Positions 1-22,541 of a stretch of 37,455 bases of DNA are shown in pieces. Made by a program: the position numbers and the translations under genes. The first letter of the stretch is position 1. Every line of letters begins with the position of its first letter. This stretch comes from Candidatus Latescibacterota bacterium (GTDB taxonomy: Bacteria; Latescibacterota; 4484-107; B68-G9): the NCBI GenBank assembly GCA_003645885.1, contig QNCW01000002.1:1-37455 (forward strand). Direction: 5' to 3'. The notes below the pieces were generated by a model that was not told the origin of the DNA, made no database searches, and was given only the letters and a program-made list of their open reading frames with translations.

Positions 1-104
1 AAGGTAAGCTCGTGCCCCCTGGCTTGTACATTTACAGGATAGAGGTCGAGGTAGGTGAGGGGGACAGCGAAGTCGCATCTGGGACCCTGGCTGTGGTCTA
101 TTAG
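1..104 (+). CDS. 3' end of an upstream secreted protein (partial); C-terminal beta-sandwich sorting tail of T9SS/FlgD-Ig type
   Basis: Frame 3 reads GKLVPPGLYIYRIEVEVGEGDSEVASGTLAVVY followed by TAG at 102-104. The G-x-Y-x-Y-R-hydrophobic pattern resembles the terminal strands of the intact sorting tails at 15372-15641 and 17281-17541. Confidence 0.5.
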   Translation, partial: GKLVPPGLYIYRIEVEVGEGDSEVASGTLAVVY

Positions 105-594
105 TCTGCTTTGCTGCTATGCCCCTGCCATCGAGCAAGGAGGAAGGCCCGGGGAAGAACCTTACGAGGTCACGATCAAGTTCTACAAGACCTTGGAGGA
201 ATTCGAATCTCCGGGCGTCCCTCTGGCCGATGTGGGGGAGGCCGACAGGTACAGACCTGGCAGTCCCGTATGGGTCCCCGACGATGAGGTGGCCAGGCTC
301 AGGGCCAGGGGAGCCCTCGTGCCCATAGAGGGGCTGAGGGTCGTCCTGGTGGACGGGAACAGGAAGGTTCAGGGCCGCACCGATGGCTCTGGAAGGGTGA
401 GGTTCGAGCTCATCTCGGGGAGGACGTACTACATAAGGGTGTACTTCGGCACGCACGAGTGGTTCAGGAAGGTATTCCTGCTCCCCTTCTGGGTCGGGAT
501 GCTCGGGAAGGTTGAGGGTGAGGAAACCAAAAGCTCCATCGAAAGGAGCATATTCGTCTCCCCGAGCGGCGATATAAGGAGGAGGCCGTATTGA
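55..594 (+). CDS. Hypothetical secreted protein with a carboxypeptidase-regulatory-like beta-sandwich; start uncertain
   Basis: 179-aa ORF whose GTG at 55 overlaps the upstream gene, so the true start is probably further in (hydrophobic ISLLCCYAPA stretch). The segment LRVVLVDGNRKVQGRTDGSGRVRFELISGRTYYIRVY fits the CarboxypepD_reg-like pattern. Its stop TGA (592-594) overlaps the TTG start of the next gene. Confidence 0.55.
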   Translation: MRGTAKSHLGPWLWSISLLCCYAPAIEQGGRPGEEPYEVTIKFYKTLEEFESPGVPLADVGEADRYRPGSPVWVPDDEVARLRARGALVPIEGLRVVLVDGNRKVQGRTDGSGRVRFELISGRTYYIRVYFGTHEWFRKVFLLPFWVGMLGKVEGEETKSSIERSIFVSPSGDIRRRPY

Positions 595-3182
595 TCAAGC
601 TTCCCCTGCTGTTGGTCCTCTTCCTCGGAAGTCCATCCGCCCAGTTCCTCTCCAGGTCGTACTATCCCTTCTGGGACGAGGTGTACGAGAACTACGGAAG
701 GGAGGTGTACAGAGATTACCCGCTCAGGCCGGAGAGGAAGATATACGACCCGTTGGGCATATACCTTATAAAGGGGATCGATCTGGTCAGGTTCGAGGAG
801 TTCAGGACCTTGGCTCCTTTCAGGAGCTCTTCCTTGGTGAAGATGGAGGATTACGGGGAAGTGTTCGATAAGCTCGTAATAGCGGACGAAAGCTACATGG
901 GCTGGGCGAACGTGGCGATGGTCGGGAATGCGATAAGGACCAGGTTCACACAGTGCACCCTGAGCCTGGCGAGGTTCAACGGGGTGAGGTGGGACGCATC
1001 CTCAAGGAAGAACAGGTTCTCTATATTGGGCTCGAGGATATCCAACCCCCAGATAGGGGAGATGGACCCGGAGATGGTCGAGCATTTCGCACCCCTGTTC
1101 ATGGAGTTCTTCGGGACCTTCATGTTCGGCGGGCGCTGGGAGGGCACGTTCGGGGACGTGCTGGAGCTTGGTACCACATTTTTGAACCTCCACAGGGCTG
1201 ACGGGCTCAGGAGGAGGGGCTCCATAAGGGGTGTGGTTCCGAGCATCACACCGTGGATACCGGTGGTATACGTTGTGTTCAGCGATGACTCCCCGGAAGA
1301 TGGGGGCGGGGCTGAGGTCTACGACGTCCAGATCTTCGTAAACGGGGTCAGGAGGGACGACATAAAGCCCGAGGTCAGGAAGATAAGGGATGTGGTTAGG
1401 CTGAGGAAGCCTTTCATGACCCTCAGGGACATCCCCCACATCCGGAGGGACGGTCCGTGGCTCGTCAACACCCTCACGTACTCCTATATGTTCGAGCAGA
1501 AGAAGAGGAGGGGGGACGGGGGACTGTTCGCTAAGGATGGGTTTGACCCGGGACCTGAGGTCCCCCTCAGGGCGGACGGAACGGACGTGCTGGTGTTCAA
1601 GTACGAGATCCCTTCCGATGCTAAGGCCTTAAGGTTCAGAGCGTTGGTCTCAGGAGATTACTGCATAGATGTCGCATCCGGGCTGAGCTGGGCCTTCACG
1701 TGGGAGGACTGGCACAACGTGGCGAGGGCCAGGGGCAAGCCCAAGGGAGGCTCCAACCTGGGATGGGTAAGCTTCGAATATGGCTTCCCGACGGGGATGA
1801 GCCTCTACGGAGCAGATTTCAGGCTCAGGCTCGGAGGGTTCAAGATAGAGGGGGAATATTCGAACTACGAGGGGTACTTCCAGCTTCCCGTGCCAGGAGG
1901 GAAGAGGAGCACCCTGAAGGGTGGGGTGTACTTCCTCAGGGCGCTCAGGACCTCGCCGAGGTTAGATCTGGGCTTAGAGGTGTTCAGGTTCCTTCCAGGG
2001 TACACCACCTCGTTCCCCATATGGAAGGACGACAGGCCTGGGAGGGCAGGGGTGGTCAACTACGAGCTAGTGGACGACAACGACGACCAGGACGAGTGGC
2101 CGGACACCTGGGAGAACTGGGACCCCCTCGATCCCCATTACAACCCTGAGGAGCCCGGCCTTCCGTGGGAGGCCCAGATGAACCTGAGCCCCCCCGCAAG
2201 GGTGGGGATGGGGGTATATCCCGGTCTGGACGTGGACCAGGATGGGAGGCCCGACTACAGCACTTCGGAGAGCATATTCCTCAGCTACTACGTCGATCCG
2301 TTGGGCTACGTTTACGGGGACGACTTCAACAACAACGGTGTCGTGGACGTCAGGGAGGATGACAACAAGCCCGACTATCCATACGATGTTGACAGCCAGG
2401 GCGGGCACCTTTTCTTGAGGTTCAGGCCAGTTGAGGACATCGCCCTGAGGTTCGGACTGTACGACGTGAGGAGGATAGCAGGGTGCGGCAGGAACTTCGT
2501 GGGGTACGGAGAACTCGGCTACACCCGGAGGTTAAGGTTCGGAGATCTCAGGTTCAACTACATGGTCAAGAGGGTCATGGACGACATCCCGGACGATGTG
2601 TACTCGATCGGGAGGTGGTGGCTGGTGAGGCACGACCCCTTGGACATGAAGGACAGCATAGTTCACATATTCTTCCTGGACTCACACCTGAACACCATTA
2701 AGGATCTGAACATAACGAACAGGTTAAAGTTTAACTTGAACTTGAAGAGGGACGGGGGCAGGGTTACGGACGTGACGTGGGTCAGCAAGGCCGACTACAC
2801 TTTCAAGCTCGGGAGGGTCTCGATAAGGCCCATGTTGAAGTATACCTTCGGCAGGTTCAAGAGGACGGACCCTCCCAGGACCGAAGTTGGATATTCCCTC
2901 CTCCCCCTCCTCAGGGTGGATGTGCCGCTGGCGCGGAGCTCCAGGCTCAAGTTCGGGCTGAAGGGATATCCCTTCCCCTATATGTCGAGGGACCCGCTCC
3001 ATCCGGCCGAGGACCTGGATTCCAGGGGGTACGTCATCGTATTCGAGAACAGGAGCAAGTATCTGGGTTACGACGTGATCTTTCAGATCATATCCGAAAG
3101 GAGGATGGAGAGGCGTCCTGGGATGGGAAAGGTTGGGGAGAGGGATTACGCAAGGTACGAGGTGAGGGTATATGCTGAGTAG
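591..3182 (+). CDS. Large predicted outer-membrane protein, paralog A (863 aa), with Asp-rich Ca-binding-type repeats; family not recognised
   Basis: TTG start preceded by AAGGAGGAGG (577-586). Signal peptide MIKLPLLLVLFLGSPSAQF. Full-length paralogy to 3172-5817 and 6518-9382, with shared YENYGRE, IRT(R/K)FT, NG(V/I)R.D, GG(R/H)WE, VDDNDD.DE/RxPD, NNNGxxDxREDDxKPxYPYDxD, G(C/G)GRN and (K/R)FGxxG(Y/F)P motifs. The C-terminal third has an amphipathic beta-strand character. Confidence 0.85.
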   Translation: MIKLPLLLVLFLGSPSAQFLSRSYYPFWDEVYENYGREVYRDYPLRPERKIYDPLGIYLIKGIDLVRFEEFRTLAPFRSSSLVKMEDYGEVFDKLVIADESYMGWANVAMVGNAIRTRFTQCTLSLARFNGVRWDASSRKNRFSILGSRISNPQIGEMDPEMVEHFAPLFMEFFGTFMFGGRWEGTFGDVLELGTTFLNLHRADGLRRRGSIRGVVPSITPWIPVVYVVFSDDSPEDGGGAEVYDVQIFVNGVRRDDIKPEVRKIRDVVRLRKPFMTLRDIPHIRRDGPWLVNTLTYSYMFEQKKRRGDGGLFAKDGFDPGPEVPLRADGTDVLVFKYEIPSDAKALRFRALVSGDYCIDVASGLSWAFTWEDWHNVARARGKPKGGSNLGWVSFEYGFPTGMSLYGADFRLRLGGFKIEGEYSNYEGYFQLPVPGGKRSTLKGGVYFLRALRTSPRLDLGLEVFRFLPGYTTSFPIWKDDRPGRAGVVNYELVDDNDDQDEWPDTWENWDPLDPHYNPEEPGLPWEAQMNLSPPARVGMGVYPGLDVDQDGRPDYSTSESIFLSYYVDPLGYVYGDDFNNNGVVDVREDDNKPDYPYDVDSQGGHLFLRFRPVEDIALRFGLYDVRRIAGCGRNFVGYGELGYTRRLRFGDLRFNYMVKRVMDDIPDDVYSIGRWWLVRHDPLDMKDSIVHIFFLDSHLNTIKDLNITNRLKFNLNLKRDGGRVTDVTWVSKADYTFKLGRVSIRPMLKYTFGRFKRTDPPRTEVGYSLLPLLRVDVPLARSSRLKFGLKGYPFPYMSRDPLHPAEDLDSRGYVIVFENRSKYLGYDVIFQIISERRMERRPGMGKVGERDYARYEVRVYAE

Positions 3183-5817
3183 GGCCGCCCTTCTGGTGCT
3201 GCTGCCCTCTGCGGCGTTCTGTCAGCTCCTCTTCGAGCCCGGGGAGGAGTACGAGAACTACGGAAGGGAGGACTATAAGAGATATGGTAAGTCCATATTT
3301 TACAGGATATTGAATCCAGTATACGATGAGATGGGGGACTTCGTAACAAACGGTGTGGAGATATTCTCGCTGAGGGAGACGCACACCGTATATCCAAGGC
3401 CGGGAAGCAGGCTCTGGAAGGGGGAATATTTCTACAAGTACGTGAACGGGCTGGTTGTCTCCCACAACATCTTGGGCAGGAAGTACATGAGCATAGCGGT
3501 TGGGGACAACATAAGGACGAAGTTCACCCCCCTTTCCTTGGACATGGCCAACCTGAACGGTATACGCTGCGACCTGGATACAGGTCCGGACAAGTTCACC
3601 CTCGTCACATCGAGGGTCGACAGGCCCATATTCAACCTGGACGACAGCAAGACACACAACAAGGAGATACACCTCCCCAGGTACGCCACCTACCTGCTCG
3701 GGGGCCACTGGGAGAGGAGGATAGGGACCTTGACCGTAGGTGGGACTTACGTAAACCAGTTCAGGGTGGACAGCATGGTGGGGACCGAGAGGAACAGCCT
3801 GAAGGGGACCCTTCCGAAGGATGGCTATCCTGTGGCCTACTTGGTCTTGAAGCTCGCAGATGGCTCGGAACAAAGGAAGGGAGGGGCAAGGATATACGAT
3901 GTGGAGATATACATGGACGGAAAGAGGAGGGAAGTACCCGTCCTGGTGACCCAGCACGATGCGAAGGTGATAGATCTTGAATATCCGAACGGGGACAGGG
4001 GGTTCCCTAAGCCCATACCTCCCTACGTCCAGTTCATCAGGGGCGACCTGCCCACCAAGCCCTTCGGCACATTCCAGGCGGAGGGGAGCAAGTACGTGCT
4101 GTACTGGTTCGAAATGCCCGAGGACCTGGGATGCAGGTCGGTGGAGTTCAGGGTGGTAGTTTCGGGAGACTACCTGTTGAGCCTCTCCGAGGTGTACGTG
4201 GCAAACCCCTTAGCTCCGAAGACGGACCCCCTAAGGAGGTACGGGGCCACATATTTCTACGAGGTCGCTGGCGCCAAGGGGAGCCCCGAGAACTACAACG
4301 ACGTGGAGGTTGTAAGGTTCAACTACGGTAGGCAGACCAGCAACACCGTGGCCGGGCTCCATCTCAGGCTCGATTCCAAGGAGCTCTTCGTCAACGCAGA
4401 ATATAAAAGGCGCTTCGACTTCAGGCAGTTCCTGAACGGGTCCGGCGAGCACTTCCTCTCCACAGCCGATGCCTTCTACGTAAACCTCAAGAGGTATTCC
4501 CGCAAGTTCTCGTTCGGAGGCGAGCTGTTTTACATATCCCCCTTCTACAGCACGATGATATCCGTGAACGACCTTTCGTACGCAACCTCTTACCTGAGGA
4601 GCATAGACAGCCCGTTTACGGATGCCGAAATGTTCTTGAAGAACAATACATTAGAGTTCGACACCGTGGACGACAACGACGATAAGGACAGGTTCCCTGA
4701 CAAGTACTTCCTCCTCAAGAAGGCCGACAACAACGGAGTCTTCCCGGGCCAGGACGAGGACATGGACGGAAGGCCGGACGTCAACGAGAACGAGAACGAC
4801 ATCCCGGACTATCTTGAGCCCTTCCTTCTCTACGACGTCAACCCACAGGAGTTCGACTACGGCGACGACATGAACAACAACGGCATCATAGACATAAGGG
4901 AGGACGACGACAAGCCCGACTACCCGTACGATGTGGACTCAAAGGGATACCACATCTTCCTTGAGCTCGAACCAACAAAAGGACTTAAGTTTACATTGGG
5001 CCACTACGATGTCCGCCAGATCCTGGCCGGGGGTAGGAACGTTGTGAGTTACCTCAAGCTCGACTACTCTAAATACTTACCTTTCCTGGCCGACATCCAC
5101 CTCGTTAACTTCTCGAAGAGGGTGAGGGACGACATAAAGGACGATGTCTTCCAGTTCCAGCAAGGCATACCTTCTTCCTTCAATCCAGACCCGAGGTCGA
5201 GGTTCGGTGTAACGAACATAAGGACGGTCCTGGTCGAGGATAGACTTCTCATGAAGGACAGCTTCGTGAACACTTCCTACATGAAGGTCAGGTTCCTGGG
5301 TGTCAAGGGGTTGAACTTCGAGCAGAGCCTTAAGGTGGAGCTTAACAGGCAGTTCCTCGGAAGGTCCAAGAACGACATATGGAGGTGGGCCTACGTGCTC
5401 AAGGGGGATTACACGTACAGGTTCGGGAGGTTAAGCATAAGTCCGAAGTTCAAGTACATGGCTTACAGGGTACACGACCGTAAGGATGCCGTCGTGCACG
5501 CTCACGAGGCCTACTTCTTCCCGATACTGAGGGTGGACTACACGCTCACGCCGAGGACCAAGATAAAGTTCGGGGCCCAGGGCTTCCCCTTCCTGAAGGG
5601 AACGTACAGGGACTTCATAAACAGGTTCAGGGACTACACTTCCCAGGATTACATAATAATGCTGAGCAACATATCCACTTATAGGGGATACGAACTCAGC
5701 TTCAATGTCGGCTACGAGGTAAGGAAGCAGACGTATAAGGACAGGAGGAGGGCCTTCGAGGACGTGGATTACGGGTTCTTCTTCTTAAGGTTCATAGTCG
5801 GGGTCAAGGAAATATAA
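3172..5817 (+). CDS. Large predicted outer-membrane protein, paralog B (881 aa), with thrombospondin-type-3-like Asp-rich repeats
   Basis: ATG at 3172 overlaps the end of paralog A by 11 nt. Signal peptide MLSRAALLVLLPSAAFCQ. Same motif series as paralogs A and C. Acidic cassette VDDNDDKDRFPD...GQDEDMDGRPDVNENENDIPDY...DDMNNNGIIDIREDDDKPDYPYDVD at 4666-4938. Confidence 0.88.
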   Translation: MLSRAALLVLLPSAAFCQLLFEPGEEYENYGREDYKRYGKSIFYRILNPVYDEMGDFVTNGVEIFSLRETHTVYPRPGSRLWKGEYFYKYVNGLVVSHNILGRKYMSIAVGDNIRTKFTPLSLDMANLNGIRCDLDTGPDKFTLVTSRVDRPIFNLDDSKTHNKEIHLPRYATYLLGGHWERRIGTLTVGGTYVNQFRVDSMVGTERNSLKGTLPKDGYPVAYLVLKLADGSEQRKGGARIYDVEIYMDGKRREVPVLVTQHDAKVIDLEYPNGDRGFPKPIPPYVQFIRGDLPTKPFGTFQAEGSKYVLYWFEMPEDLGCRSVEFRVVVSGDYLLSLSEVYVANPLAPKTDPLRRYGATYFYEVAGAKGSPENYNDVEVVRFNYGRQTSNTVAGLHLRLDSKELFVNAEYKRRFDFRQFLNGSGEHFLSTADAFYVNLKRYSRKFSFGGELFYISPFYSTMISVNDLSYATSYLRSIDSPFTDAEMFLKNNTLEFDTVDDNDDKDRFPDKYFLLKKADNNGVFPGQDEDMDGRPDVNENENDIPDYLEPFLLYDVNPQEFDYGDDMNNNGIIDIREDDDKPDYPYDVDSKGYHIFLELEPTKGLKFTLGHYDVRQILAGGRNVVSYLKLDYSKYLPFLADIHLVNFSKRVRDDIKDDVFQFQQGIPSSFNPDPRSRFGVTNIRTVLVEDRLLMKDSFVNTSYMKVRFLGVKGLNFEQSLKVELNRQFLGRSKNDIWRWAYVLKGDYTYRFGRLSISPKFKYMAYRVHDRKDAVVHAHEAYFFPILRVDYTLTPRTKIKFGAQGFPFLKGTYRDFINRFRDYTSQDYIIMLSNISTYRGYELSFNVGYEVRKQTYKDRRRAFEDVDYGFFFLRFIVGVKEI

Positions 5818-5831
5818 GGGGGTGCTCCCCG
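5815..5831. repeat. Left arm of a perfect 17-nt inverted repeat (TAAGGGGGTGCTCCCCG)
   Basis: Exact reverse complement of 6491-6507. Contains the TAA stop of paralog B. Confidence 0.9.
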
Positions 5832-5845
5832 GGAAAGGAGGAGAG

Positions 5846-6478
5846 ATGGTCAGGCTAACGCTAGCAGGTCTGTTGGCCTTGGTCCTGGCGGGAACTGTGG
5901 CCGCCTACGAGAAGCCGGAGGGTGAGGTCCTTGTACAGAGCTGGGGCTTCGAAGCTCCTTCGAGCTGGTACCGAATATGGCCCTTCCAGTTCTTTTACTG
6001 GTGGCAGTTCGCCGACACCACCACCTTCAGGGCTGAAAGGGCCGCCCATACCGGGAAGTGGGGCCTCGTGCTCACCCATCCCTCGTGGATACCCGAGGAG
6101 CACGGGGGCACCCCGTACGCCATTTGGGGCATAAGCTACATCCCAGGCGCAAAGTACAGGGTGTCGTACTGGGCCAAGAGCGACGGGGTCATAGAGGTCC
6201 ACGGCGAGATATACTGGAGGTCGGAGCACAAGGATGGGACCTTGGTTTCCTTCGAGCCTTACAAGGGCACAGAATGGAAGCAGTTCTCGTACGAATGGAC
6301 CGCCCCGACCCTGGATAAGACCGAGGGCAAGGAGGCTTTCCTTGCGGTTTGGTTCTGGCCCAGACCAAAGCGGACGGACGGGGAGGCGTACGTGGACGAT
6401 GTCGAGGTATGGCTCATCGGGTACGAGCTGCCCGTGGATGAGATGACCTGGGGTAGGATAAAAGCTAGCTTCAAGTAA
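5846..6478 (+). CDS. Secreted carbohydrate-binding-module-like (CBM4/9/22-type beta-sandwich) protein, about 210 aa
   Basis: In-frame ATG at 5846 preceded by AGGAGG (5836-5841), preferred over the GTG at 5822 in the ORF track. Signal peptide MVRLTLAGLLALVLAGTVAAYE. Trp/Tyr-rich, with the C-terminal motif GEAYVDDVEVW typical of CBM_4_9-like modules. Confidence 0.7.
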   Translation: MVRLTLAGLLALVLAGTVAAYEKPEGEVLVQSWGFEAPSSWYRIWPFQFFYWWQFADTTTFRAERAAHTGKWGLVLTHPSWIPEEHGGTPYAIWGISYIPGAKYRVSYWAKSDGVIEVHGEIYWRSEHKDGTLVSFEPYKGTEWKQFSYEWTAPTLDKTEGKEAFLAVWFWPRPKRTDGEAYVDDVEVWLIGYELPVDEMTWGRIKASFK

Positions 6479-6490
6479 AATAGTAACTTA

Positions 6491-6507
6491 CGGGGAGCAC
6501 CCCCTTA
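6491..6507. repeat. Right arm of a perfect 17-nt inverted repeat (CGGGGAGCACCCCCTTA)
   Basis: Exact reverse complement of 5815-5831. Overlaps the 14-nt palindrome CCCCCTTAAGGGGG (6500-6513), which also carries the SD of paralog C. Confidence 0.9.
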
Positions 6508-6517
6508 AGGGGGCAAC

Positions 6518-9382
6518 ATGTGGACGTTGACGGCACTCCTCTTGGTAGCACATGCCTCGGTTCCACCCACCTTCATCCCCAGCAGGAACTTCATAATGAA
6601 GCAGGTGGGGGGGTACGAAAACTACGCCTTCACGGGCTACGAGAACTACAAGACCATAAGGTATCCTTATGTCACCTCGAAGAGGCCGATCTACGACCCC
6701 ATGGGCGACTTCCTGATGAGGGGCATAGATGTCTACTCATGGATAGAGAGGAGGGGGGAGGGATGGGCGTACACGAGGATAAGGAAACCTGCGGTATACA
6801 GGACGATATTCGACTACGTGATCATAGGCTCGGACAGTTGGGGAAGTTCATCAGGGAAGATTATAGTGGCCAACGAGATAAGGACCAAGTTCACTCCCCT
6901 AACCTTCAACCAGGCCCAGTTCAACGGCATAAGGGCTGACATAGCAACCGAAGACGACAGGGCCAGCTTCATCCTTTCCCGTTTCACGAGGCCGATATTC
7001 GCTGGCAGGTATTCCACCGGAGAGGGGTTCTACCCACCGGACATGGGGCTGCTTTTAGGTGGCCACTGGGAGAGGCAGGTGGGGGTGATGACCCTGGGTG
7101 CCACCTTCTACAACGCCCACACCTACGATCGTATGTCCTCCCCAGGGGAGGGAGACTTCGTCAGGGGGACCATAAACCAGAACATACCGGTCCCGATGAT
7201 CGTAGCTGTCAGGGTATCGGACGACTCGCCGGAAGACGGGACGGGGCCGGTTGTGTTCGACGTTAGGGTTTACATAAACGGCCGGATCAGGCCCGACGTC
7301 AGGCCGGACGTTATAAAGAGGGATTCCAGGCAAAACTACACGGCCATATGGGAGAAGGACCCCTCGGACCCGACCGGCAAGACCTTCAGGAGGAAGGGCC
7401 AATACGCCCTGTTCGTCCCGGCGGGGTACTTCCAGTGGAACAGGGAGAGGTTCAGGGGATGGGAATATCCCCTCTACGCCGATTACTTGTACCGCATGGA
7501 CATAGAGAGGGGAGAGATATCCCCCGAGGAGATAGCTAATCCAGCCGACCCCAACGAGATGCTCAGGAGGTTCCAGCTCGTAAGGGATTTCCCCATGAGG
7601 GCGGACGGGTACGATGTCCTTATGTTCTACCTGGACCTCTCGAGGCTCGGGGAGGATTATATAAGTTCCGTGAGGATGGACCTGCTTATCGGCAACGATT
7701 ACAGGATAGATATATCCACGATAGGGGCCTCCCAGAGCTTGAGCGAGAAGAGCTTCTACAAGAGGGGGTACACAGAAAGGTACCAGCCCAGCTACTACCA
7801 GCTCGTAAGGAGGGCGCCGGGTAATGTGAAGGACCTTTCGAACGTCGGGTGGGTGAGGGTGGAGATAGGGCACCAGACGGGCCTTACGGTGCGGAGCCTG
7901 AACTTCCATGCGAACTTCAGGGGGCTCGAGGTGAACGCAGAATATGCAAGTAGCACCCTCTACTTCCAGTACCCGGACGGAAGGCCGGCCCCCCAGACCG
8001 AGGACGAGAGGAAGGCGAGACAAGGTAACATATATTCCAGGAAGAGGCTGGGCGGAAGGTGGAAGATGGACGGGAAGGCTTATTACCTCAACCTCCACAA
8101 GGAGGGGAGGAGGTTCGGGTTCGGCTTCGAGTACTTCTACATGGGTCCTTACTACACGACCACGATAGTGACCTACAACAGCTACGCAGGGGCTGGAGTC
8201 CTGAGCTCCAGGCAGTTCGCACCTTGGGATTTCGTGGAGGACAACGACGACAACGACAGGTTCCCGGACCTGAACTCCCCAGACCCGGTGCCCGGCATAG
8301 GAAGCCACGGGTACGAGCCGGACGGGGTCTTCCCCGGCAAGGACGAGGACAAGGACGGCATCCCCGACACGAACAGGAACGGCAACGACCTGCCGGACTA
8401 CGTTGAACCCTTCCTGATGTACTACGTGGAGCCGGACGAGTACGCATACGGCAGGGACATGAACAACAACGGGGTGATAGATGTCAGGGAGGACGACAGG
8501 AAGCCCGAATATCCTTACGACCCGGACAGGAAGGGATACCACGTGTACCTGAGGCTGAGCCCGACCCGATTTTTAAGCCTGACCCTGGGCAGGCTCGACA
8601 GCAGGGAGGTGGCGGGAGGAGGGGTGAACAAGGTCAACTATGCTAAGCTCACCCTGGACGTGGCCAAAACCGGTATGGGAAGGGTCTTCGCCGAGTTGAA
8701 GTTGAAGGACGTGCGGGACGACATAAGGGACGATGTGTTCAAGTACTCCGAAAAGCCAGGTGGGGTCTACGACCCCATGACCGGATACGGTGCGCTCTAC
8801 AAGGCCACGTACACCGAGGACCCCTTAGACTATAGGGACAGCTTCGTGAGGACCTTGTACGTATCTGCGGACGTGACCCCCGTCCAGGGGCTAAACTTCC
8901 ACGCAAGCTTGAAGGAGGAGCTGAACGACCAAAGGTGGCTGTCCGACAGGGTGGGGTTGACAGCGGCCGTGAGCAGGATGGACTACACCTTCTGCTTGGG
9001 CGGGCTTAAGGTGACCCCTGCCTTCAAGCTGCAGTGGCTCAAGAAGACGAGGAAGAGCACGAGGGTTCCCCTCATGCACGAGGTCAGGCTTGTGCCCATC
9101 TTGAGGTTGAAGTACCAGCTCGCTCCGAAGGTGGCCATCAGGTTCGGGGCTCAGGGGTTCCCCGGGCTGGAGCACAGGTTCCTGAACTTCACCGAGGGGA
9201 GGAAGAACTTCAGGGAGAAGACCTACATCTTGGACTTCGTCAGCTCCTCGGAGTACTGGGGATACAAGGTATGGATGAACTTCGGACTCAAGTTCGAACA
9301 GAAGGAGTTCGACGACCCCTTCAGGAAGGTCGATAACGTCAAGTACGCTTCCTACTTCGCAAGGGTGGTATTAAGTTACTGA
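6518..9382 (+). CDS. Large predicted outer-membrane protein, paralog C (954 aa), with thrombospondin-type-3-like Asp-rich repeats
   Basis: ATG preceded by AAGGGGG. Signal peptide MWTLTALLLVAHASV. Duplicated YENY box (YENYAFTGYENYK). Acidic cassette at 8234-8527. Ends in ...ARVVLSY (aromatic terminal residue, OMP beta-signal-like). Confidence 0.88.
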   Translation: MWTLTALLLVAHASVPPTFIPSRNFIMKQVGGYENYAFTGYENYKTIRYPYVTSKRPIYDPMGDFLMRGIDVYSWIERRGEGWAYTRIRKPAVYRTIFDYVIIGSDSWGSSSGKIIVANEIRTKFTPLTFNQAQFNGIRADIATEDDRASFILSRFTRPIFAGRYSTGEGFYPPDMGLLLGGHWERQVGVMTLGATFYNAHTYDRMSSPGEGDFVRGTINQNIPVPMIVAVRVSDDSPEDGTGPVVFDVRVYINGRIRPDVRPDVIKRDSRQNYTAIWEKDPSDPTGKTFRRKGQYALFVPAGYFQWNRERFRGWEYPLYADYLYRMDIERGEISPEEIANPADPNEMLRRFQLVRDFPMRADGYDVLMFYLDLSRLGEDYISSVRMDLLIGNDYRIDISTIGASQSLSEKSFYKRGYTERYQPSYYQLVRRAPGNVKDLSNVGWVRVEIGHQTGLTVRSLNFHANFRGLEVNAEYASSTLYFQYPDGRPAPQTEDERKARQGNIYSRKRLGGRWKMDGKAYYLNLHKEGRRFGFGFEYFYMGPYYTTTIVTYNSYAGAGVLSSRQFAPWDFVEDNDDNDRFPDLNSPDPVPGIGSHGYEPDGVFPGKDEDKDGIPDTNRNGNDLPDYVEPFLMYYVEPDEYAYGRDMNNNGVIDVREDDRKPEYPYDPDRKGYHVYLRLSPTRFLSLTLGRLDSREVAGGGVNKVNYAKLTLDVAKTGMGRVFAELKLKDVRDDIRDDVFKYSEKPGGVYDPMTGYGALYKATYTEDPLDYRDSFVRTLYVSADVTPVQGLNFHASLKEELNDQRWLSDRVGLTAAVSRMDYTFCLGGLKVTPAFKLQWLKKTRKSTRVPLMHEVRLVPILRLKYQLAPKVAIRFGAQGFPGLEHRFLNFTEGRKNFREKTYILDFVSSSEYWGYKVWMNFGLKFEQKEFDDPFRKVDNVKYASYFARVVLSY

Positions 9383-9392: not shown

Positions 9393-12300
9393 ATGGCAAA
9401 GTTAATGACCGCCCTCCTGGTCGTGGTCACGGTTGTGCTGACGAGGTTCGCTCCGACCGCTGACGAGCTTAAGGCTTACTTCGAGCAGGCCCAGAAGTTC
9501 TACGCCTCCGGAGCGTACGAGCAGGCCCTGGACAAGTACAGGAAGATAATAGAGGTCGAAAGCAGGTTCATAGATAAGTCCAAGGTGTTGGTCTCGGTCG
9601 GAGGGATGGATGTCCCGGTCGACGAGGCCGCCCTCTACCAGTCCGGCAACTGCTACTTCAAGCTCTTCGTCGAGGCCAAGGACAGGGCAGAGGGTACCTT
9701 CGACCCGGAGGAACGCAGGAGGTACGAGGCCGAGGCCCGTAGGTACCTGGACCTTTCCATATCCTCCTTCTCCGAGGTCGAATCCAAGGCGAGCGATACG
9801 AAGCTCAGGGCCCTGGCCCAGAAGAGGCTCGTGGACCTCCTTTATCACGATGGAAGGTACAAGGAAGTGGTGGAGCAGGCCGAAAGGCTTATGGCGAGGT
9901 ACCCCACCAGCGAATACGTCGTAGATGCCCTTTACAACATAGGATGGAGTTACTTCAAGATGGGGGATTACCAAAGGAGCATCCAGACCTTCGAGGAACT
10001 GGTCAGGAGGTTCCCTGAGGATTACAGGACCGACAGGGCCCTGTTCCAGGTGGGCGAGTGTTACTACAGACAGGGCAAGTACGACCTCGCCTCCGAGTAC
10101 TACCGGAGGATAGTGGAGAAGTATAGGATAGAGGAGCTGACCGAGCAGGAGATCCAGAGGATGGAGAGGGAGAAGCTCGCAGGGCTGGTGGACGAGACGG
10201 CGTTGGAGCTTGCCGGAAAGGCCCAGCTGAGGGTGGGGGATTGTTACGCCCAGCTCGGCGAGCTTAGGAAGGCGGCCGAGGTCTACGGAAAGGCGGCCAA
10301 GGTGTTCGGAAGGTACAGGTGGGTGGTGGAGCAAGCTTACATAAGGCTGGCCGATGCGTACCTCGAAAGGGGGGAAGTGGAGGCAGCGGCGGATGTGTAC
10401 AGGGATGCGATAGATAGGGTCGAGGATAAGTTCTTCAAGGCGAAGATGCAGGCCCTGGTGGCGAAGCTATATTACGATGCCGGGAAGTTCGAGGAGGCGA
10501 TCAGGGAGTACGACCTCTACATGAGGGCGTACGGGGAGGTGGCGGATAGGACCCAGCTTTCTTTGGCGGAGGCGGAATATAAGATAGGAAGGGCGTTCTT
10601 CGAGATGGGTAAGAAGCTCGACTCGTCCGAGGAGTACGAGGAGGCCATATCGCACTACACGAGGATACTCGAGAAATGGCCGGAAAGCAGGATGGTGGTC
10701 GCAGCCAAGTTCAACATAGCCCTCTGTAAGCAGATGATGGGAAGGTTGAGGGAGGCGCTGGAGGGGTTCTCCTCCATAGTGGACGAGCACCCCAAGGACG
10801 AGTACGTGCCCAACTGCCTGCTCCAGATGGCGAGGATACACTGCGAGCTTGGGGAGTACGAGGAATCCATGAAGTTATACAGGAAGCTTTCTTCGTCTTT
10901 CCCCGACTTCATGAGGGATGCCGTCCGCTTCGAGCTCGGCCTGGTGCTGAAGAAGATGGGCAGGACAGAGGAAGCTGTGGAGATGTGCCTTAAGGTCGGC
11001 CCGGAGTCCGAGCTTTACCCCAAGGCGGTCTTAGAGGCGGGGCAGATGTTGATATCCCTGGGGAAGTTCGAGAGGGCGGTGGACGTGGTTAAGGGGGCGA
11101 TCGGGAGGCTCGGAGGGGAATGGAGGGTGAAGGCTTACTACGTCCTGGGCAAGGCCCTGATGGGCATGAAGGAGTACGAAGGGGCGATAGAAGCCTTCAC
11201 GGAGGTCGCAGATGGGACCGAGGAGGGAAGGCTCCGGCAGAGCGCTATCTACGGAAGAGGGGTGGCGTACTTCTCTTTGGGGAAGTACAGGCAGGCCCAG
11301 GAGGATTTCTCCCTCCTGCTGGAAAGCGAGGATGTGAAGATAAGGTACTCCTCGAGGAAGCTGCTGGGGATGGCGCTCATACGCCAGGGGAAGGAGAGGG
11401 ATGCCATAGGCCACATAGAGAAGTTGATATCCCTGACGTCCGACCCATACGCCAAGGCGGAGTATATGCTGTTGCTCTCCGAACTGCTCTATGGGGCTGG
11501 GGACTACGAAAAGATGATAGAAATATGCGAGGAGATAATTCACATGGGCCTGGGCGACAGGAAGACCGAACTTCCTTACTACCTCAACGAGAAGGCATAT
11601 TTCCTCCTGGGGGAGGGGTACTCGAAGCTCGGAGACTACGACATGGCGGCCAGGACCTACGCCGAGGGCCTGAAGAAGTACCCGGATGGTTACTATTCCG
11701 GGGATATGCTATTCGGCCTCGCATTCTCGCACTTCCAGTGCGGCAGGATGTACGATGCTGCCATCTGCTTCGAGAGGTTCCTATCCGAACATCCCGACGA
11801 CGCTAACTCCCCGTATGCCAAGTACTACTTGGGATATGCCTTTTTTAACCAGTCCGTCTTCGACAGGGCGGCTGAAACCTTCGCTGACCTCGGCCTGAAG
11901 TTTCCCAAGCTCGAGATATCCCCCGACGCCCTCTTCAGGGCGGGCGAGAGCTACTTCAACTTGGGCAAGTTCGAACTTGCTTTGGACTTCTACAGGAAGG
12001 TGGTCGAGGGCTATCCTCGCTCCCCCCAGGCGGACGATGCGCTCTACAGCATGGCATGGGCGTTCCTGGAAGAGGGGAAGGACGATAAGGCGGTGGAGTG
12101 TTTCGAGAGGCTGCTGAGGGAGTTTCCCGAAAGCGAGTTCTGCCCGTATGCAAGGTTCAGCTTGGGGGACTACTACTACAACTTGGGGGAGTACAGGAGG
12201 GCGTTCGAGGAGTACAGCAGGGTTCTGAAGGACTATCCTGACGAGGAGGTAGCCTCCAAAGTTCCCGAGATACTCGACGACCTGAGGGAGGTCGTGGCCT

Positions 12301-12599
12301 ACCAGGACTACGAGAAGGCCAGGGATGTGTTCAGGGAGGCCCTGGCAAGCAAGGACCTGGAGAAGTTCGAGGAGGCGGCGAGGCTCTTCCAGGAGATAGT
12401 CCGAAAGCACCCCGGCACGGAAAGCGCTGTCGGCGCCCTGAGCAACATGGGGATATGTTACGAGTACCTAAAGAATTGGAAGCGAGCCGTCTCGGTCTAC
12501 GACAGGGTGATAGCGATGTACGAGCAGGGGAAGGCCAGCCCTGAGGCCTACAGGTTCGCAAAGGCACACAGGGATTGGATAGTCGCAAACAGGCTCTGA
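9393..12599 (+). CDS. Membrane-anchored or secreted tetratricopeptide-repeat (TPR) protein, 1068 aa
   Basis: ATG preceded by GGAGGGG. N-terminal hydrophobic helix MAKLMTALLVVVTVVLT. The rest is repeated 34-aa-type units with the A..Y......G.Y..A...F..... signature (e.g. ALYNIGWSYFKMGDYQRSIQTFEELVRRFP, ALFQVGECYYRQGKYDLASEYYRRIVEKY, ALYSMAWAFLEEGKDDKAVECFERLLREFP). Confidence 0.9.
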   Translation: MAKLMTALLVVVTVVLTRFAPTADELKAYFEQAQKFYASGAYEQALDKYRKIIEVESRFIDKSKVLVSVGGMDVPVDEAALYQSGNCYFKLFVEAKDRAEGTFDPEERRRYEAEARRYLDLSISSFSEVESKASDTKLRALAQKRLVDLLYHDGRYKEVVEQAERLMARYPTSEYVVDALYNIGWSYFKMGDYQRSIQTFEELVRRFPEDYRTDRALFQVGECYYRQGKYDLASEYYRRIVEKYRIEELTEQEIQRMEREKLAGLVDETALELAGKAQLRVGDCYAQLGELRKAAEVYGKAAKVFGRYRWVVEQAYIRLADAYLERGEVEAAADVYRDAIDRVEDKFFKAKMQALVAKLYYDAGKFEEAIREYDLYMRAYGEVADRTQLSLAEAEYKIGRAFFEMGKKLDSSEEYEEAISHYTRILEKWPESRMVVAAKFNIALCKQMMGRLREALEGFSSIVDEHPKDEYVPNCLLQMARIHCELGEYEESMKLYRKLSSSFPDFMRDAVRFELGLVLKKMGRTEEAVEMCLKVGPESELYPKAVLEAGQMLISLGKFERAVDVVKGAIGRLGGEWRVKAYYVLGKALMGMKEYEGAIEAFTEVADGTEEGRLRQSAIYGRGVAYFSLGKYRQAQEDFSLLLESEDVKIRYSSRKLLGMALIRQGKERDAIGHIEKLISLTSDPYAKAEYMLLLSELLYGAGDYEKMIEICEEIIHMGLGDRKTELPYYLNEKAYFLLGEGYSKLGDYDMAARTYAEGLKKYPDGYYSGDMLFGLAFSHFQCGRMYDAAICFERFLSEHPDDANSPYAKYYLGYAFFNQSVFDRAAETFADLGLKFPKLEISPDALFRAGESYFNLGKFELALDFYRKVVEGYPRSPQADDALYSMAWAFLEEGKDDKAVECFERLLREFPESEFCPYARFSLGDYYYNLGEYRRAFEEYSRVLKDYPDEEVASKVPEILDDLREVVAYQDYEKARDVFREALASKDLEKFEEAARLFQEIVRKHPGTESAVGALSNMGICYEYLKNWKRAVSVYDRVIAMYEQGKASPEAYRFAKAHRDWIVANRL

Positions 12600-12600
12600 T

Positions 12601-13089
12601 ATGTCATCCTTGATCTTAGGATTTCTCCTCGCCCTCGGGACCTGGGCGGAGGAGGACATATTCCGGAAGAAGCCGGTCACAAGGGAGGAGGCCGTAAAGC
12701 TTTCGGCCATCTTCCCCGGGATCGGGCAGATATCTTCGGGCCACAGGCTGAAAGGTACGGTATTTTTCGTCCTCGAGGTCGCCTCCATAACGGGCACCTT
12801 CCACGCCCACGAGACTTACAGGACCAAGCTCTCGAAGTTCGAGCAGGCTAAGGAGGAATACCTAAGCTCGAGGAGCTACAGCGAAGCCGAGGAGAGGTGG
12901 AGGAAGCTTTCTCGACAGAAGGAGGAGCTGGACAGGCTGAGGAGGACGAGGTACGCCCTGGCATGTTCCTGCCTGGGCGTGTACTTCCTCAGCCTCCTGG
13001 ATGCGGCATTCATCAGCTCCTACGAGGTCTCCCTCGAGCCGGTGAGGATCAAGGATGCCTTGGGGATAACCTTGGAGGTGCGATGGTAA
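12601..13089 (+). CDS. Small two-TM membrane protein with a central coiled-coil (DUF5683-like PG(I/L)GQ motif)
   Basis: Starts 1 nt after the TPR gene stop. Signal-like N-terminus. FPGIGQISSGHRLKGTVFFVLEVASITG hydrophobic segment, charged helical middle (EEYLSSRSYSEAEERWRKLSRQKEELDRLRR), and a second hydrophobic segment ALACSCLGVYFLSLLDAAFI. Confidence 0.7.
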   Translation: MSSLILGFLLALGTWAEEDIFRKKPVTREEAVKLSAIFPGIGQISSGHRLKGTVFFVLEVASITGTFHAHETYRTKLSKFEQAKEEYLSSRSYSEAEERWRKLSRQKEELDRLRRTRYALACSCLGVYFLSLLDAAFISSYEVSLEPVRIKDALGITLEVRW

Positions 13090-15654: not shown

Positions 15655-17544
15655 ATGTTGTCCTTGATGCTCGTGGTCGTCGGCCTGCTCGAAGCTGGCA
15701 CCTACTATGTTTCCACCTCGGGGGACGACTCTTGGCCCGGCACATCGTCCTCCCCTTGGAGGCACATAAGCTACGGGGTGGGCAAGCTGGGCCCGGGTGA
15801 TACTCTGGTCGTCCTGGCCGGGAACTACGGCGACGAACAGGTGAACGTAAACTTCGGTGGAAGGCCGGATGCCCCGATAGTGATAAGGGGGGAGCCCCCG
15901 GGGAGTGTGACGATGGAGGGCAGGGGCGGGGGGACGGGGTTCAGCATAACGGGAAGCTACATAGTCGTAGAGGGGATAAGGTTCAGGAACTACTCCTCCG
16001 GGGTGGGCATAGCGGACCCATCCTCGTACGTAACCGTGAGGAGGTGCATATTCGAGGACAACAACTCCTGCGGCGTAATAGCATGGGGGACATCCTACAG
16101 CATTTGGGACTTACACGACATCCTCGTGGAGGAGTGCCAGTTCTACGATCACGCAAACACACAGGACTACGGAATATCTTTCAACTATGCAGCGAAGGTC
16201 GTGGCCAGGAACAACTACTTCTTCGGCGACCACCACCAAACCCTCTCGTTCAAGAGGAAGGTGTACTATGGGCTTGCTAAGGACAACGTCTTCGAGGGCT
16301 TCCTGTATACGGCCCTGTACCTTGGCCAGAACCTCGACACCTCGGAGGAGGACAACAGGAGCAGGTACCTCATAGCCGAGGGCAACGTCTTCCGGCCCGC
16401 TGAGGGACATAGGGCCAAGAGGCCCATATGGGTGGCAAACGTGGATTGGGCCGTCGTGAGGGACAACTTCATGGAGGGAAGGGACGATGTGGACGGAGGA
16501 TGGGGGGAGGGCATAGGCTTAGGGGACCACGAGGATGGGTATCTCCCAGCAAACCCGGACCATGTCACGATATATAGGAACGTTATGAGGAGGATAGGTG
16601 GAACCACGACCAACCCGGGGATAAGGGTCTACCACAGGTGCGGGGATGTGAAGGTGTTCAACAACACATTTGCTAACTGCGCTTACTCCTTTGGCTTCGA
16701 GATGGAGGAGACCATACTCTTCCTCAACAACATATTTTACAACTCAAGGAACGGGACCGTGAGGGAGGGCACTGGAAGGAACTCGATATACGAGCACAAC
16801 ATCTTCTATCCGATGTGGAAGGGTATGGGGCCGACTGACATATCCGAGGACCCTCTTATGGTAGGTCCCTTCGATCCCTTGGAGGTGGGGGGGGAAGATC
16901 CGAAGTTCGTGCCCGACTTCACCAGGGCCTTCGCATGCAGGCTCAGGGAGGGTTCTCCGTGCATAGATGCTGGGAGGTTCCTGACGTGGACCGTGGGTTC
17001 GGGGAGCGGGACCCAGGTCAGGGTGCAGGATGCGAGCTTCTTCACCGACGGGTTCGGGATGGCCGAGGGGGACATCGTCAAGGTGGGGGACGAGGAGCCG
17101 GCCAGGGTCGTAGGCGTAGACTACGACATGAACTTGATAACCCTCGACCGCCCGATATCCTGGGAGGACGGCGAGGGGGTGAGCATGGCGTACTTCGGTT
17201 CGGCTCCGGACATAGGCGCATACGAGTACGAGCCCCGTCCTTGGGTGGAGGAGGATGCCATCGAGGTGGTGGGGCCGAAGGTGGTGGTCTTCCCCAACCC
17301 CTCGTGCGGGAGGGTGTTCGTGGAGTGTCCCGTCTCGAGCGTCGGGAGGGTGAGGATCGTAGTGTACGACATCTTGGGGAGGACCGTCAGAAAGCTTGCG
17401 GACGACTTCGTGGATTCCCCTGGGACGTACAGGACCTTCTGGGACGGGACCGACGGGGATGGCAGGCCCACCTCGCCAGGAGTGTACGTGATTAGGTTCG
17501 AGGTAGGTGGGCTCAGTTCGACGAGGAAGCTCGTGAGGTTCTGA
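15655..17544 (+). CDS. Secreted right-handed parallel beta-helix protein with T9SS C-terminal sorting domain (629 aa)
   Basis: GAGGAGG upstream. Signal peptide MLSLMLVVVGLLEAGT. YYVSTSGDDSWPGTSSSPWRHISYGV...GDTLVVLAGNY is a typical beta-helix cap. EDPLMVGP...REGSPCIDAG is the end motif. The tail FPNPSCGRVFVECPVSS..VRIVVYDILGRTVRKL...TFWDGTDGDGRPTSPGVYVIRF spans 17281-17541. Confidence 0.85.
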   Translation: MLSLMLVVVGLLEAGTYYVSTSGDDSWPGTSSSPWRHISYGVGKLGPGDTLVVLAGNYGDEQVNVNFGGRPDAPIVIRGEPPGSVTMEGRGGGTGFSITGSYIVVEGIRFRNYSSGVGIADPSSYVTVRRCIFEDNNSCGVIAWGTSYSIWDLHDILVEECQFYDHANTQDYGISFNYAAKVVARNNYFFGDHHQTLSFKRKVYYGLAKDNVFEGFLYTALYLGQNLDTSEEDNRSRYLIAEGNVFRPAEGHRAKRPIWVANVDWAVVRDNFMEGRDDVDGGWGEGIGLGDHEDGYLPANPDHVTIYRNVMRRIGGTTTNPGIRVYHRCGDVKVFNNTFANCAYSFGFEMEETILFLNNIFYNSRNGTVREGTGRNSIYEHNIFYPMWKGMGPTDISEDPLMVGPFDPLEVGGEDPKFVPDFTRAFACRLREGSPCIDAGRFLTWTVGSGSGTQVRVQDASFFTDGFGMAEGDIVKVGDEEPARVVGVDYDMNLITLDRPISWEDGEGVSMAYFGSAPDIGAYEYEPRPWVEEDAIEVVGPKVVVFPNPSCGRVFVECPVSSVGRVRIVVYDILGRTVRKLADDFVDSPGTYRTFWDGTDGDGRPTSPGVYVIRFEVGGLSSTRKLVRF

Positions 17545-20683: not shown

Positions 20684-20685
20684 GC

Positions 20686-21421: not shown

Positions 21422-21469
21422 GGTCTGATCGGGGAGGGGTGGGGTCGGGGAGGCATCAGGTCTTTTTTT
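21422..21469 (+). terminator. Possible intrinsic terminator of the envelope operon: imperfect stem enclosing the G4 motif, then T7
   Basis: GGTCTGAT (21422-21429) can pair with ATCAGGTC (21455-21462) using 6 Watson-Crick and 2 G-U pairs. It is followed directly by TTTTTTT (21463-21469). The 25-nt loop is atypically long. Confidence 0.35.
21431..21450 (+). other. Canonical G-quadruplex motif GGGGAGGGGTGGGGTCGGGG in an intergenic spacer
   Basis: Four G4 runs separated by loops of 1, 1 and 2 nt, read directly from the sequence. Non-coding, 23 nt after the TAG at 21406-21408. Confidence 0.7.
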
Positions 21470-21489
21470 ATCCCAAAACGGGAGGTCAC

Positions 21490-22536: not shown

Positions 22537-22541
22537 TCCTC

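Follow-up and report, generated by a model that had tools for sequence, protein, structure and literature searches.

The DNA analyzed here is a stretch of 37,455 nucleotides from a Candidatus Latescibacterota bacterium (GenBank assembly GCA_003645885.1, contig QNCW01000002.1, positions 1 to 37,455 of the forward strand), referred to below as the window. Its subject are three neighboring paralogous genes, A, B and C, whose products of about 900 amino acids are predicted to be giant outer-membrane β-barrels. It is highly probable that these proteins constitute a novel family of outer-membrane barrels, and we hold with equally strong confidence that the barrels are part of a dedicated multi-gene envelope system. 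What is new is a family within a known kind of protein, with an unusual anatomy and a new association at the level of the system. The conserved partner genes downstream of the barrels, which the initial annotation of the window (made from the sequence alone) had missed, are the main clue to function.

A family of predicted giant outer-membrane barrels

The initial annotation had described A, B and C as three full-length paralogs with signal peptides, and the corresponding open reading frames (ORFs) were found at exactly the positions it gave (Table 1). BLASTP alignments between them were collinear over the full length, with identities of 30 % for A/B (E 6e-92), 32 % for B/C (E 3e-127) and 30 % for A/C (E 2e-93), a similarity that at the level of sequence is far above chance. 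The start of A overlaps the stop of the preceding 179-amino-acid ORF by 4 nucleotides and B overlaps A by 11 nucleotides, which suggests translational coupling. In all three N-termini, which are signal-like, a hydrophobic stretch precedes a cleavage motif of small residues, with putative cleavage sites at ..SPSAQ|F in A, ..AAFCQ|L in B and ..VAHA|S in C. Glutamine was observed as the predicted first mature residue in A and B as well as in many orthologs (..SAQ|F, ..FCQ|L, ..FGQ|F, ..AAQ|L; window positions 591-650 and 3172-3230 and the orthologs of loci L001 and L002). A glutamine following the cleavage site resembles the "Q-rule" for signal-peptidase I substrates of Bacteroidetes. Tyr, Phe, Gly and Asp are abundant and Cys is nearly absent, and C ends in an aromatic residue (Tyr), as had been noticed before. 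The motif series reported for the three paralogs was recovered with minor deviations: six motifs are common to A, B and C (IRT(K/R)FT, NG(I/V)R.D, GG(H/R)WE, NNNG..D.REDD.KP.YPYD.D, DD(I/V)..DV and (K/R)FG..G(F/Y)P), whereas five others are slightly altered in single paralogs. These are YENYGRE (YENYAF in C), SGDY (GNDY in C), VDDNDD (VEDNDD in C), GGRN (CGRN in A, GGVN in C) and the ..NG of (V/I)YDV.I..NG (MDG in B).

The family had been called unrecognised, and this assessment held. No above-threshold Pfam match was obtained for A, B, C or 19 homologs, and no above-threshold NCBIfam match for A, B and C; B and C were without any match in the two libraries, and the only Pfam match of A was a sub-threshold one to SlpA_C at 14 bits. 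Sequences in the PDB were not matched by phmmer or by hmmsearch with a 22-sequence profile. A word-indexed search of 5.8 billion proteins yielded 22 relatives of B, two of which were named, both as "hypothetical protein", while a profile search of 1.84 billion cluster representatives retrieved 835 members at E <= 1e-3, of which 275 reached E <= 1e-30. Nearly all of them belong to Latescibacterota and adjacent lineages, and the names of ten widely spread clusters were "hypothetical protein" in all cases. Scanning the GTDB species genomes revealed at least 576 confirmed loci, most of them labelled Candidatus Latescibacterota and a minority Gemmatimonadota, KSB1, Handelsmanbacteria, Cytophagia or Myxococcales, all labels being those of the depositors of the metagenome-assembled genomes (MAGs). 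RKY67063.1, a protein of a Candidatus Latescibacterota MAG, shares 99 % identity with C. Several genomes carry at least 10-12 family genes, and several contain two or three complete A-B-C loci plus single genes. Literature searches on DUF5683/DUF4159 and on Latescibacteria(-ota) combined with outer membrane or type IX secretion system (T9SS) turned up no publication that deals with the family or with a T9SS of Latescibacteria.

The initial annotation had proposed structure prediction followed by a Foldseek search, and these resulted in a barrel-type β model with outer-membrane barrels as its matches. The AlphaFold2 model of B, built from a shallow alignment of 22 sequences, reached a pLDDT of 71.3 and a pTM of 0.70 and is nearly all β-strand, the longest helix having at most 9 residues. 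Although 227 residues lie below pLDDT 50, the strand regions are mostly at pLDDT 80-94. A conserved, putatively periplasmic N-terminal segment of ~70 residues (YENY...YD..G.F), unstructured in the model, is followed by ~6 long strands (residues 93-200), a β-rich domain (205-375), ~5-6 strands (379-466), a low-confidence acidic segment (497-590) and ~16 strands extending to the C-terminus. The resulting count of ~26-28 barrel strands was read from the DSSP strand list of the model, not from its coordinates. The same layout, with the domain inserted behind about strand 6 and the acidic segment, is proposed for A and C. Outer-membrane barrels made up all 50 PDB matches listed by Foldseek for this model; 40 of these 50 had E <= 0.001, and 30 of the 40 had a probability of at least 0.9. 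MtrB (E 6.2e-10), Deinococcus SlpA (5e-8 to 4.5e-7) and LptD (from 7e-6) were the best matches, and TonB-dependent transporters, OmpG, porins and FimD were found as well. As far as the model goes, this result backs the fold class and not any specific family.

The barrel strands also exhibited a period-2 amphipathicity (z = 3.5, 0/2000 shuffles reaching the observed value) when the alternation of the set of lipid-facing residues of outer-membrane proteins was averaged over the alignment and scored on barrel strands only, while the strands of the β-rich insert were not amphipathic in the period-2 test (z = -0.9). No α-helical transmembrane segment was detected past the signal peptide (maximum 19-residue hydropathy 1.06). 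An outer-membrane β-barrel is the best-supported fold for the modelled protein because of the β-rich model, a Foldseek list consisting of barrels only, the amphipathic barrel strands and the lack of an α-helical transmembrane segment. Amphipathic strands had previously been suspected in the C-terminal third; they are indeed amphipathic, but the barrel is predicted to extend from residue ~93 to the C-terminus rather than to occupy the last third only. What A, B and C have in common with known outer-membrane barrels is, judged from the model, generic: signal-like N-termini, amphipathic strands, a barrel-type fold and no α-helical transmembrane segment.

Two features interrupt the predicted barrel of B. 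Modelled alone, the insert domain was predicted as a confident β-sandwich (pLDDT 83, pTM 0.83), and a Foldseek search of the PDB gave no match better than E 0.07, so that it could not be assigned as a carbohydrate-binding module, an Ig domain or an usher-type plug. The acidic cassette, which coincides with a region of low pLDDT, consists in B of the loops VDDNDDxD, DxDxDGxPD, NxNxNDxPDY and DxNNNGxxDxREDD. The corresponding patterns of the family are V(D/E)DNDDxD, DxDxDGxPD, NxNxNxxPDYxEPF and DxNNNGxxDxRExDxxPDYPYDxD; their columns are invariant or nearly so in the family alignment and the loops are kept in the consensus of A, B and C alike. Because they resemble loops of the DxDxDG type, they are probable Ca2+-binding sites by analogy. 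A was said to have a partly degenerate cassette, and one of the four loops is indeed degenerate in A of the window (YSTSESIFLSYY in place of N.N.N..PDY.EPF). This very loop is kept in the consensus of 49 A-type orthologs, which rules out that a degenerate cassette characterizes the A subtype and makes it a feature of the organism.

Gene order, partner genes and other contexts

Neighboring genes were surveyed in 82 fetched loci and the window, the best 80 of the at least 576 loci being examined. ORFs of the fetched loci were called by a longest-ORF heuristic in which antisense ORFs sometimes displaced the tetratricopeptide repeat (TPR) gene, and the partner counts given below are lower bounds. 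The family hidden Markov model identified 190 family genes in this set. Three long contigs carry the same three-gene array, and identities to the same-position genes of other loci (38-40 % for A, 44 % for B, 34-36 % for C) exceed those to genes in other positions (28-33 %; 28-31 % for A against B and C types). Clustering of 185 full-length members resulted in three major clades containing 43 of 45 position-1, 43 of 45 position-2 and 44 of 45 position-3 genes. The order A-B-C was observed in 43 loci besides the window, with median spacings of 3-4 nucleotides for both A-B and B-C that give the genes the look of a co-transcribed set, and an extra gene, often encoding an F5/8 type C protein, was present between B and C in 12 loci. 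Because the paralogs cluster with the same-position orthologs of other loci, the triplication is ancient and the paralogs are non-redundant. The tandem triplication described by the initial annotation thus stands in that three paralogs lie side by side, but it is old; a recent tandem duplication was ruled out by the orthology pattern. The three ancient clades and the order that is fixed in 43 further loci also lend support to the accompanying suggestion that the paralogs are subfunctionalised or form a hetero-oligomer.

The genes surrounding A-B-C follow a recurring order. Upstream, a small lipoprotein (cluster c6), a short TPR protein, a ~640-amino-acid protein with a T9SS C-terminal domain (c4; 42/82 loci) and a ~700-amino-acid F5/8 type C protein with a CHU_C / T9SS C-terminal domain (c2; 61/82 loci) precede the barrels. 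Downstream, a TPR protein of ~1080 amino acids (c3; 57/82 loci), which in the window follows the barrels directly, is succeeded by DUF5683 (c7), the c8 lipoprotein, ExbB and one or two copies of ExbD, and these by one or two DUF4159 proteins (c1, ~410 amino acids; 54/82 loci), a ~260-amino-acid lipoprotein and a ~315-amino-acid secreted protein (c12). The counterparts in the window are listed in Table 1 together with the remaining features of the system.

Table 1. Barrel genes, domains of B and neighboring genes of the system in the window
Feature	Position	Strand	Details
Small secreted accessory protein, 179 amino acids	55-594	+	CarboxypepD_reg E 0.0037, sub-threshold
Paralog A, A-type giant outer-membrane barrel (predicted)	591-3182	+	863 amino acids, TTG start
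Paralog B, B-type barrel (predicted)	3172-5817	+	881 amino acids; core type of the system
β-sandwich domain (predicted) inserted in B (residues 205-375)	3784-4296	+	After ~6 barrel strands
Acidic cassette of B (residues 497-590)	4660-4941	+	Four Asp/Asn-rich loops, ends KPDYPYDxD
Small secreted accessory protein between B and C, 210-218 amino acids	5822/5846-6478	+	CBM_4_9 E 0.013, sub-threshold
Paralog C, C-type barrel (predicted)	6518-9382	+	954 amino acids
Giant TPR protein, 1068 amino acids, N-terminal signal/anchor	9393-12599	+	At least 12 TPR units; YbgF/BamD-like TPR matches
DUF5683 membrane protein, 162 amino acids	12601-13089	+	PF18935 E 2.3e-9; cluster c7, kept after TPR gene
Secreted β-helix protein with T9SS-type C-terminal domain	12897-15644	+	FlgD_ig E 6.6e-5 at C-terminus
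Second β-helix protein with T9SS-type C-terminal domain	15655-17544	+	FlgD_ig E 1.6e-4, Por_Secre_tail E 3e-4, both sub-gathering
Small lipoprotein, 119 amino acids	17555-17914	+	Cluster c8; homologs after DUF5683 in 16 loci
ExbB/TolQ/MotA-type proton channel	17924-18658	+	PF01618 E 1.4e-26
Two ExbD/TolR-like genes	18655-19071, 19072-19482	+	Cluster c5 with PF02472 ExbD genes of L002/L003
Membrane-anchored DUF4159 protein, 408 amino acids	19457-20683	+	PF13709 E 1.9e-34
Lipoprotein, 242 amino acids, NPYTYGN motif (STNPYTYGNW in homologs)	20680-21408	+	Homolog of short c1-type proteins after DUF4159 elsewhere

The DUF4159 protein is composed of an N-terminal transmembrane helix, a linker rich in Lys, Arg and Pro, and the DUF4159 domain. 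The helix was detected in 66 of 69 members of this cluster; it contains a His in 26 of these 66 and the SxxxH motif in 13. Membership in the TonB family was rejected on account of the latter number, and we refer to the protein as TonB-like in topology. This layout as well as the location behind ExbB-ExbD-ExbD make it a candidate for an alternative energy transducer. Among the other partners, the first β-helix protein combines Laminin_G_3, CarboxypepD_reg and a pectate-lyase-like β-helix, and the true start of its gene is probably located downstream of position 13089; the c8 homologs of L002/L003 carry a weak fn3 annotation. In the near-identical contig L083, in which the 179-amino-acid ORF is also present, four consecutive genes for proteins with T9SS signals (1-6933), two of them with F5/8 type C domains, lie upstream of this ORF and A. 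T9SS-signal genes are therefore located just upstream of the window start, and the window is cut inside the system. Nearly all long ORFs of the window are on the forward strand and GC skew is positive throughout 1-37455, a pattern that fits one long co-oriented gene block.

The small secreted β-sandwich genes reported in front of A and C were confirmed as ORFs with signal-like N-termini, but the β-sandwich assignment goes back to sub-threshold Pfam matches only. Neither protein had homologs in the other 82 loci, and for this reason the two genes appear to be lineage-specific accessories outside the conserved system. The position of the 218-amino-acid ORF is occupied by a ~690-amino-acid F5/8 type C protein in other genomes.

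Barrels of the family were also found in other gene contexts. Single B-type barrels were accompanied by c2, the TPR protein and c1 in 10 of 10 cases. In systems with one or two barrels, some of the single B-type loci among them, a PorV/PorP/SprF-like gene (L045 8902-9876; also in L029, L032, L033 and L056) separates the barrel from the F5/8 type C protein with its T9SS C-terminal domain; the A-B-C systems lack this gene. C-type singles and doubles are without c2, TPR protein and c1, and such stand-alone barrels adjoin glycoside hydrolase (GH)-like, GFO/IDH/MocA, FG-GAP/ASPIC, PhyH, sodium:solute symporter (SSF) and DUF6785/DUF6784 genes. The DUF6785/DUF6784 proteins next to stand-alone C-type barrels (L065 4784-6757 and 14163-16094; L075, L061 and L043) are multi-pass membrane proteins of ~650 amino acids and may be an inner-membrane partner.

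Sugar-metabolism genes follow the system in the window (21439-24724 and 28031-30460) and encode a GFO/IDH/MocA oxidoreductase, a GH130 mannoside phosphorylase-like protein, a ROK kinase/regulator and a GH20 hexosaminidase-like protein. Elsewhere in the window, a 932-amino-acid protein (24645-27443) combines a spermidine-synthase-like domain with C-terminal TPR repeats, and three tandem genes (33294-34709, 34713-36011 and 36008-37243; 471, 432 and 411 amino acids), all of which match neutral/alkaline ceramidase (PF04734) in part, form a second tandem paralog array (33294-37243).

Proposed working and alternative explanations

We propose, at a confidence that falls just short of an even chance for the whole chain including uptake, that the barrels are the outer-membrane module of an undescribed envelope system for glycan capture and uptake that is linked to the proton-motive force. 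Taken by itself, energization by ExbBD is about evenly balanced, and uptake as the function is put forward tentatively, with somewhat more doubt than belief. Glycan uptake is favored because of the lectin- and lyase-like partners, the catabolic neighborhoods of stand-alone barrels, the number of copies per genome and the sugar genes downstream; family sizes of at least 10-12 genes per genome are likened to those of outer-membrane protein families for nutrient uptake. Paralogy, the prediction of a barrel-type fold, gene linkage and phyletic range are shown by the data, whereas substrate, transport direction, energy coupling, oligomeric state and the topology of insert and cassette are inferred. 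Surface lectins and enzymes would bind and cleave the polysaccharide, and the barrels, probably as an A-B-C hetero-oligomer, would provide the import channel; one-gene systems would form homo-oligomers, and a trimer, as known for SlpA and porins, is an appealing option. Gating could be the role of the insert domain or of the putative Ca-binding cassette, the ~70-residue N-terminal segments might bind to the TPR protein or to the DUF4159 protein, and the ExbBD motor would drive gating via the DUF4159 protein and the periplasmic TPR scaffold. Such a system would correspond in function to SusC/D-type TonB-dependent uptake but be assembled from unrelated parts. A related reading, which we regard as possible though rather doubtful, is that a heteromeric A-B-C giant-barrel complex is the outer-membrane end of an undescribed envelope-spanning machine driven by the proton-motive force. 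This machine would comprise an ExbB-ExbD2 motor, DUF4159 transducers, the ~1080-amino-acid TPR scaffold and DUF5683, would cooperate with T9SS-exported lectin-type proteins, and would be confined to Latescibacterota, KSB1 and neighboring lineages of the Fibrobacterota-Chlorobiota-Bacteroidota (FCB) group.

Several observations weigh against glycan uptake through energized barrels. ExbB/ExbD were located within the fetched ±10 kb in only 10 of the 43 A-B-C loci, the TonB-type SxxxH motif is restricted to 13 of 66 c1 members, and the DUF4159 protein lacks a TonB C-terminal domain, as the barrels lack the plug of TonB-dependent receptors and a recognizable TonB box. The partner classes (TolQR-type motor, TPR proteins, outer-membrane barrels and surface adhesins) fit motility machines as well. 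For the barrel itself, TM-scores to known barrels are ~0.2 and the pLDDT of 71 indicates moderate confidence in the model, amphipathicity is weak on the Kyte-Doolittle scale (z about 1.5), and the C-termini of A and B are not classic β-signals. The low TM-scores, the modest pLDDT and the 227 residues below 50 could indicate that the three products are soluble, β-rich and secreted, with a barrel that arose as an artefact of the shallow alignment. This is very improbable, given that outer-membrane barrels account for all 50 Foldseek matches listed, strand pLDDT is mostly 80-94, only the predicted barrel strands show the dyad amphipathicity, and Tyr, Phe, Gly and Asp are plentiful in the sequences and Cys very scarce.

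Accepting the barrel, the same genes could build a surface-adhesin anchor or a motility/adhesion machine, in which the barrels hold or move T9SS-exported lectin-type proteins and an ExbBD-type motor acts via the DUF4159 and TPR proteins. Analogues would be the Agl-Glt machinery of Myxococcus or SprB/SprF on the gliding track of Bacteroidota. Agl-Glt comprises a TolQR-type motor, TonB-like proteins, TPR proteins, paralogous outer-membrane barrels and a surface adhesin, and its AglR/AglQ/AglS are mirrored by the one ExbB and two ExbD genes. The c2 and c4 proteins with their T9SS C-terminal domains, including CHU_C (type B-like), are encoded directly upstream of the barrels in most loci, and the PorV/PorP/SprF-like gene of the reduced systems lies between such a protein and the barrel. 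We nevertheless consider this explanation unlikely: the barrels have no similarity to PorP/SprF or PorV nor, given the small size of the latter, to the GltA/B/H barrels, the loci showed no track proteins of the GldJ/K/N or Glt type, C-type barrels occur alone in catabolic contexts without T9SS C-terminal domain proteins, TPR protein or c1, and an anchor would not require anything near the size of a ~26-28-strand barrel. Precedents for its elements include PorP-like anchoring (PMC9143113) and the coupling of outer-membrane proteins to a moving periplasmic track (PMC12635249). The barrels might instead be passive giant porins, perhaps also tethering or stabilizing the outer membrane as distant relatives of the SlpA/OmpM class. 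They would then be abundant trimers that provide general permeability and keep the envelope intact, with the TPR protein (YbgF/CpoB-like) and ExbBD (TolQR-like) forming a Tol-Pal-like maintenance system. SlpA structures occupy ranks 2-4 in the Foldseek search, SlpA_C matches appear in 5 of 22 members in one consistent register, a homo- or hetero-trimer would be compatible with systems of one or three genes, and the YbgF model gives the top score for the TPR protein. Scores of 15-22 bits against a cutoff of 35 over ~80 residues only, the lack of an SLH domain and coiled-coil stalk, at least 10 copies per genome, placed in catabolic surroundings of various kinds and thus unlike a lone housekeeping tether, and the two or three complete systems of some genomes make this quite unlikely. 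More improbable again is an export channel, either as a translocon for the neighboring T9SS-signal proteins (an alternative to SprA/Sov) or for polysaccharide, powered by an ExbBD-type motor. T9SS is driven by proton-motive-force motors (PMC12635249, PMC9127263), T9SS C-terminal domain proteins as well as the PorV-like shuttle gene of reduced systems adjoin the barrels, and the TPR protein matches PorW/SprE, though below threshold (121.8 bits; cutoff 250). SprA was, however, not among the 50 Foldseek matches listed, no SprA or secretin family match was obtained, and most stand-alone C-type barrels have no neighbors with a T9SS C-terminal domain.

Comparison with known systems

Single-chain outer-membrane barrels of at least 26 strands are rare, and the known ones (LptD, MtrB, SlpA and SprA) each defined new envelope biology; the family described here falls into this size class and has no curated model. 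MtrB is a 26-strand barrel that sheathes a partner protein. MtrB/PioB (6r2q_B) was the best Foldseek match (E 6.2e-10), yet with a TM-score of only 0.23-0.29, and there is no Pfam MtrB_PioB match and no multihaem cytochrome gene in the window or the conserved neighborhood. LptD (8h1r, 5iv9) is likewise a 26-strand barrel (Foldseek E 7e-6 to 1e-4, TM about 0.12-0.19), but A, B and C have no OstA/LptD match in Pfam or NCBIfam, no N-terminal β-jellyroll and no LptE-like neighbor, and the family is multi-copy. In ushers, a β-sandwich plug domain between strands 6 and 7 of a large barrel blocks the pore, and the insert of our family also follows ~6 strands. The match to FimD/PapC (3rfz_E) was weak (E 6.4e-4), however, and neither an Usher Pfam match, nearby chaperone/pilin genes, C-terminal periplasmic domains nor a structural match of the insert to the usher plug was found. 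Omp85/BamA/TamA relatives were not indicated either, as no POTRA or Bac_surface_Ag match was obtained in Pfam or NCBIfam, and A, B and C did not match SprA/Sov, PorV, PorP/SprF or PorQ in the same libraries that detect the PorV/PorP-like neighbor in reduced systems.

SlpA of Deinococcus-Thermus (SlpA_C PF21620; 8ae1, 7zgx, 8agd) is similar in being a very large single-chain outer-membrane barrel with inserted segments (Foldseek E 5e-8 to 4.5e-7). SlpA barrels have 28-30 strands with insertions and are trimeric (PMC9388160), against ~26-28 strands by DSSP for our model. The best SlpA_C match reached 22.5 bits against a cutoff of 35, and the matches of 5 of 22 members cover profile positions 233-323, a register that at sequence level hints at a distant relation and not at membership. 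Compared with SlpA/OmpM, the family is without an SLH domain (Pfam) or a coiled-coil stalk (model). Unlike SlpA, it has the acidic four-loop cassette, the β-sandwich insert and many copies per genome and is linked to TPR, ExbBD, DUF4159 and T9SS-signal genes.

At the level of the system, the closest parallels are offered by TonB-dependent transporters of the SusC type and by the Agl-Glt and Bacteroidota T9SS/gliding machineries. The system may work like the former, with an outer-membrane barrel, surface glycan-binding proteins, an ExbB-ExbD motor, a transducer anchored by a transmembrane helix and many copies in catabolic loci, in addition to the weak Foldseek matches to TonB-dependent transporters. 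It differs in having ~26-28 strands instead of 22, no SusD-like partner and DUF4159 in place of the TonB C-terminal domain. Plug (PF07715) and TonB_dep_Rec (PF00593) gave no match at E <= 1 in A, B, C and 19 homologs, while the same models detect a TonB-dependent transporter in L001, and the conserved N-terminal segment (YENY...YD..G.F) contains no known TonB-box signature. With the latter machineries the system has in common a TolQ/ExbB-type motor with two ExbD/TolR-like subunits, periplasm-spanning proteins anchored by a transmembrane helix, large TPR proteins, paralogous outer-membrane barrels and surface proteins with T9SS signals. Its barrels are unrelated in sequence to GltA/B/H and SprF/PorP/PorV/SprA, however, and the loci contain no GldJ/K/L/M/N-type genes.

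In a candidate phylum for which metagenomes are the only source, the family is expanded to at least 10 copies per genome. Its linkage to partner genes provides a concrete candidate mechanism, open to testing, by which Latescibacterota take up polysaccharides or interact with them, as well as a first context for the domains DUF4159, DUF5683 and DUF6785/6784. The A-B-C order, fixed over deep divergence, offers a clean case for a homo-oligomeric outer-membrane protein becoming a hetero-oligomer. If the reading as a heteromeric machine is true, it would represent a third way, beside TonB-dependent transporters and T9SS/gliding, to couple energy of the inner membrane to work at the outer membrane.

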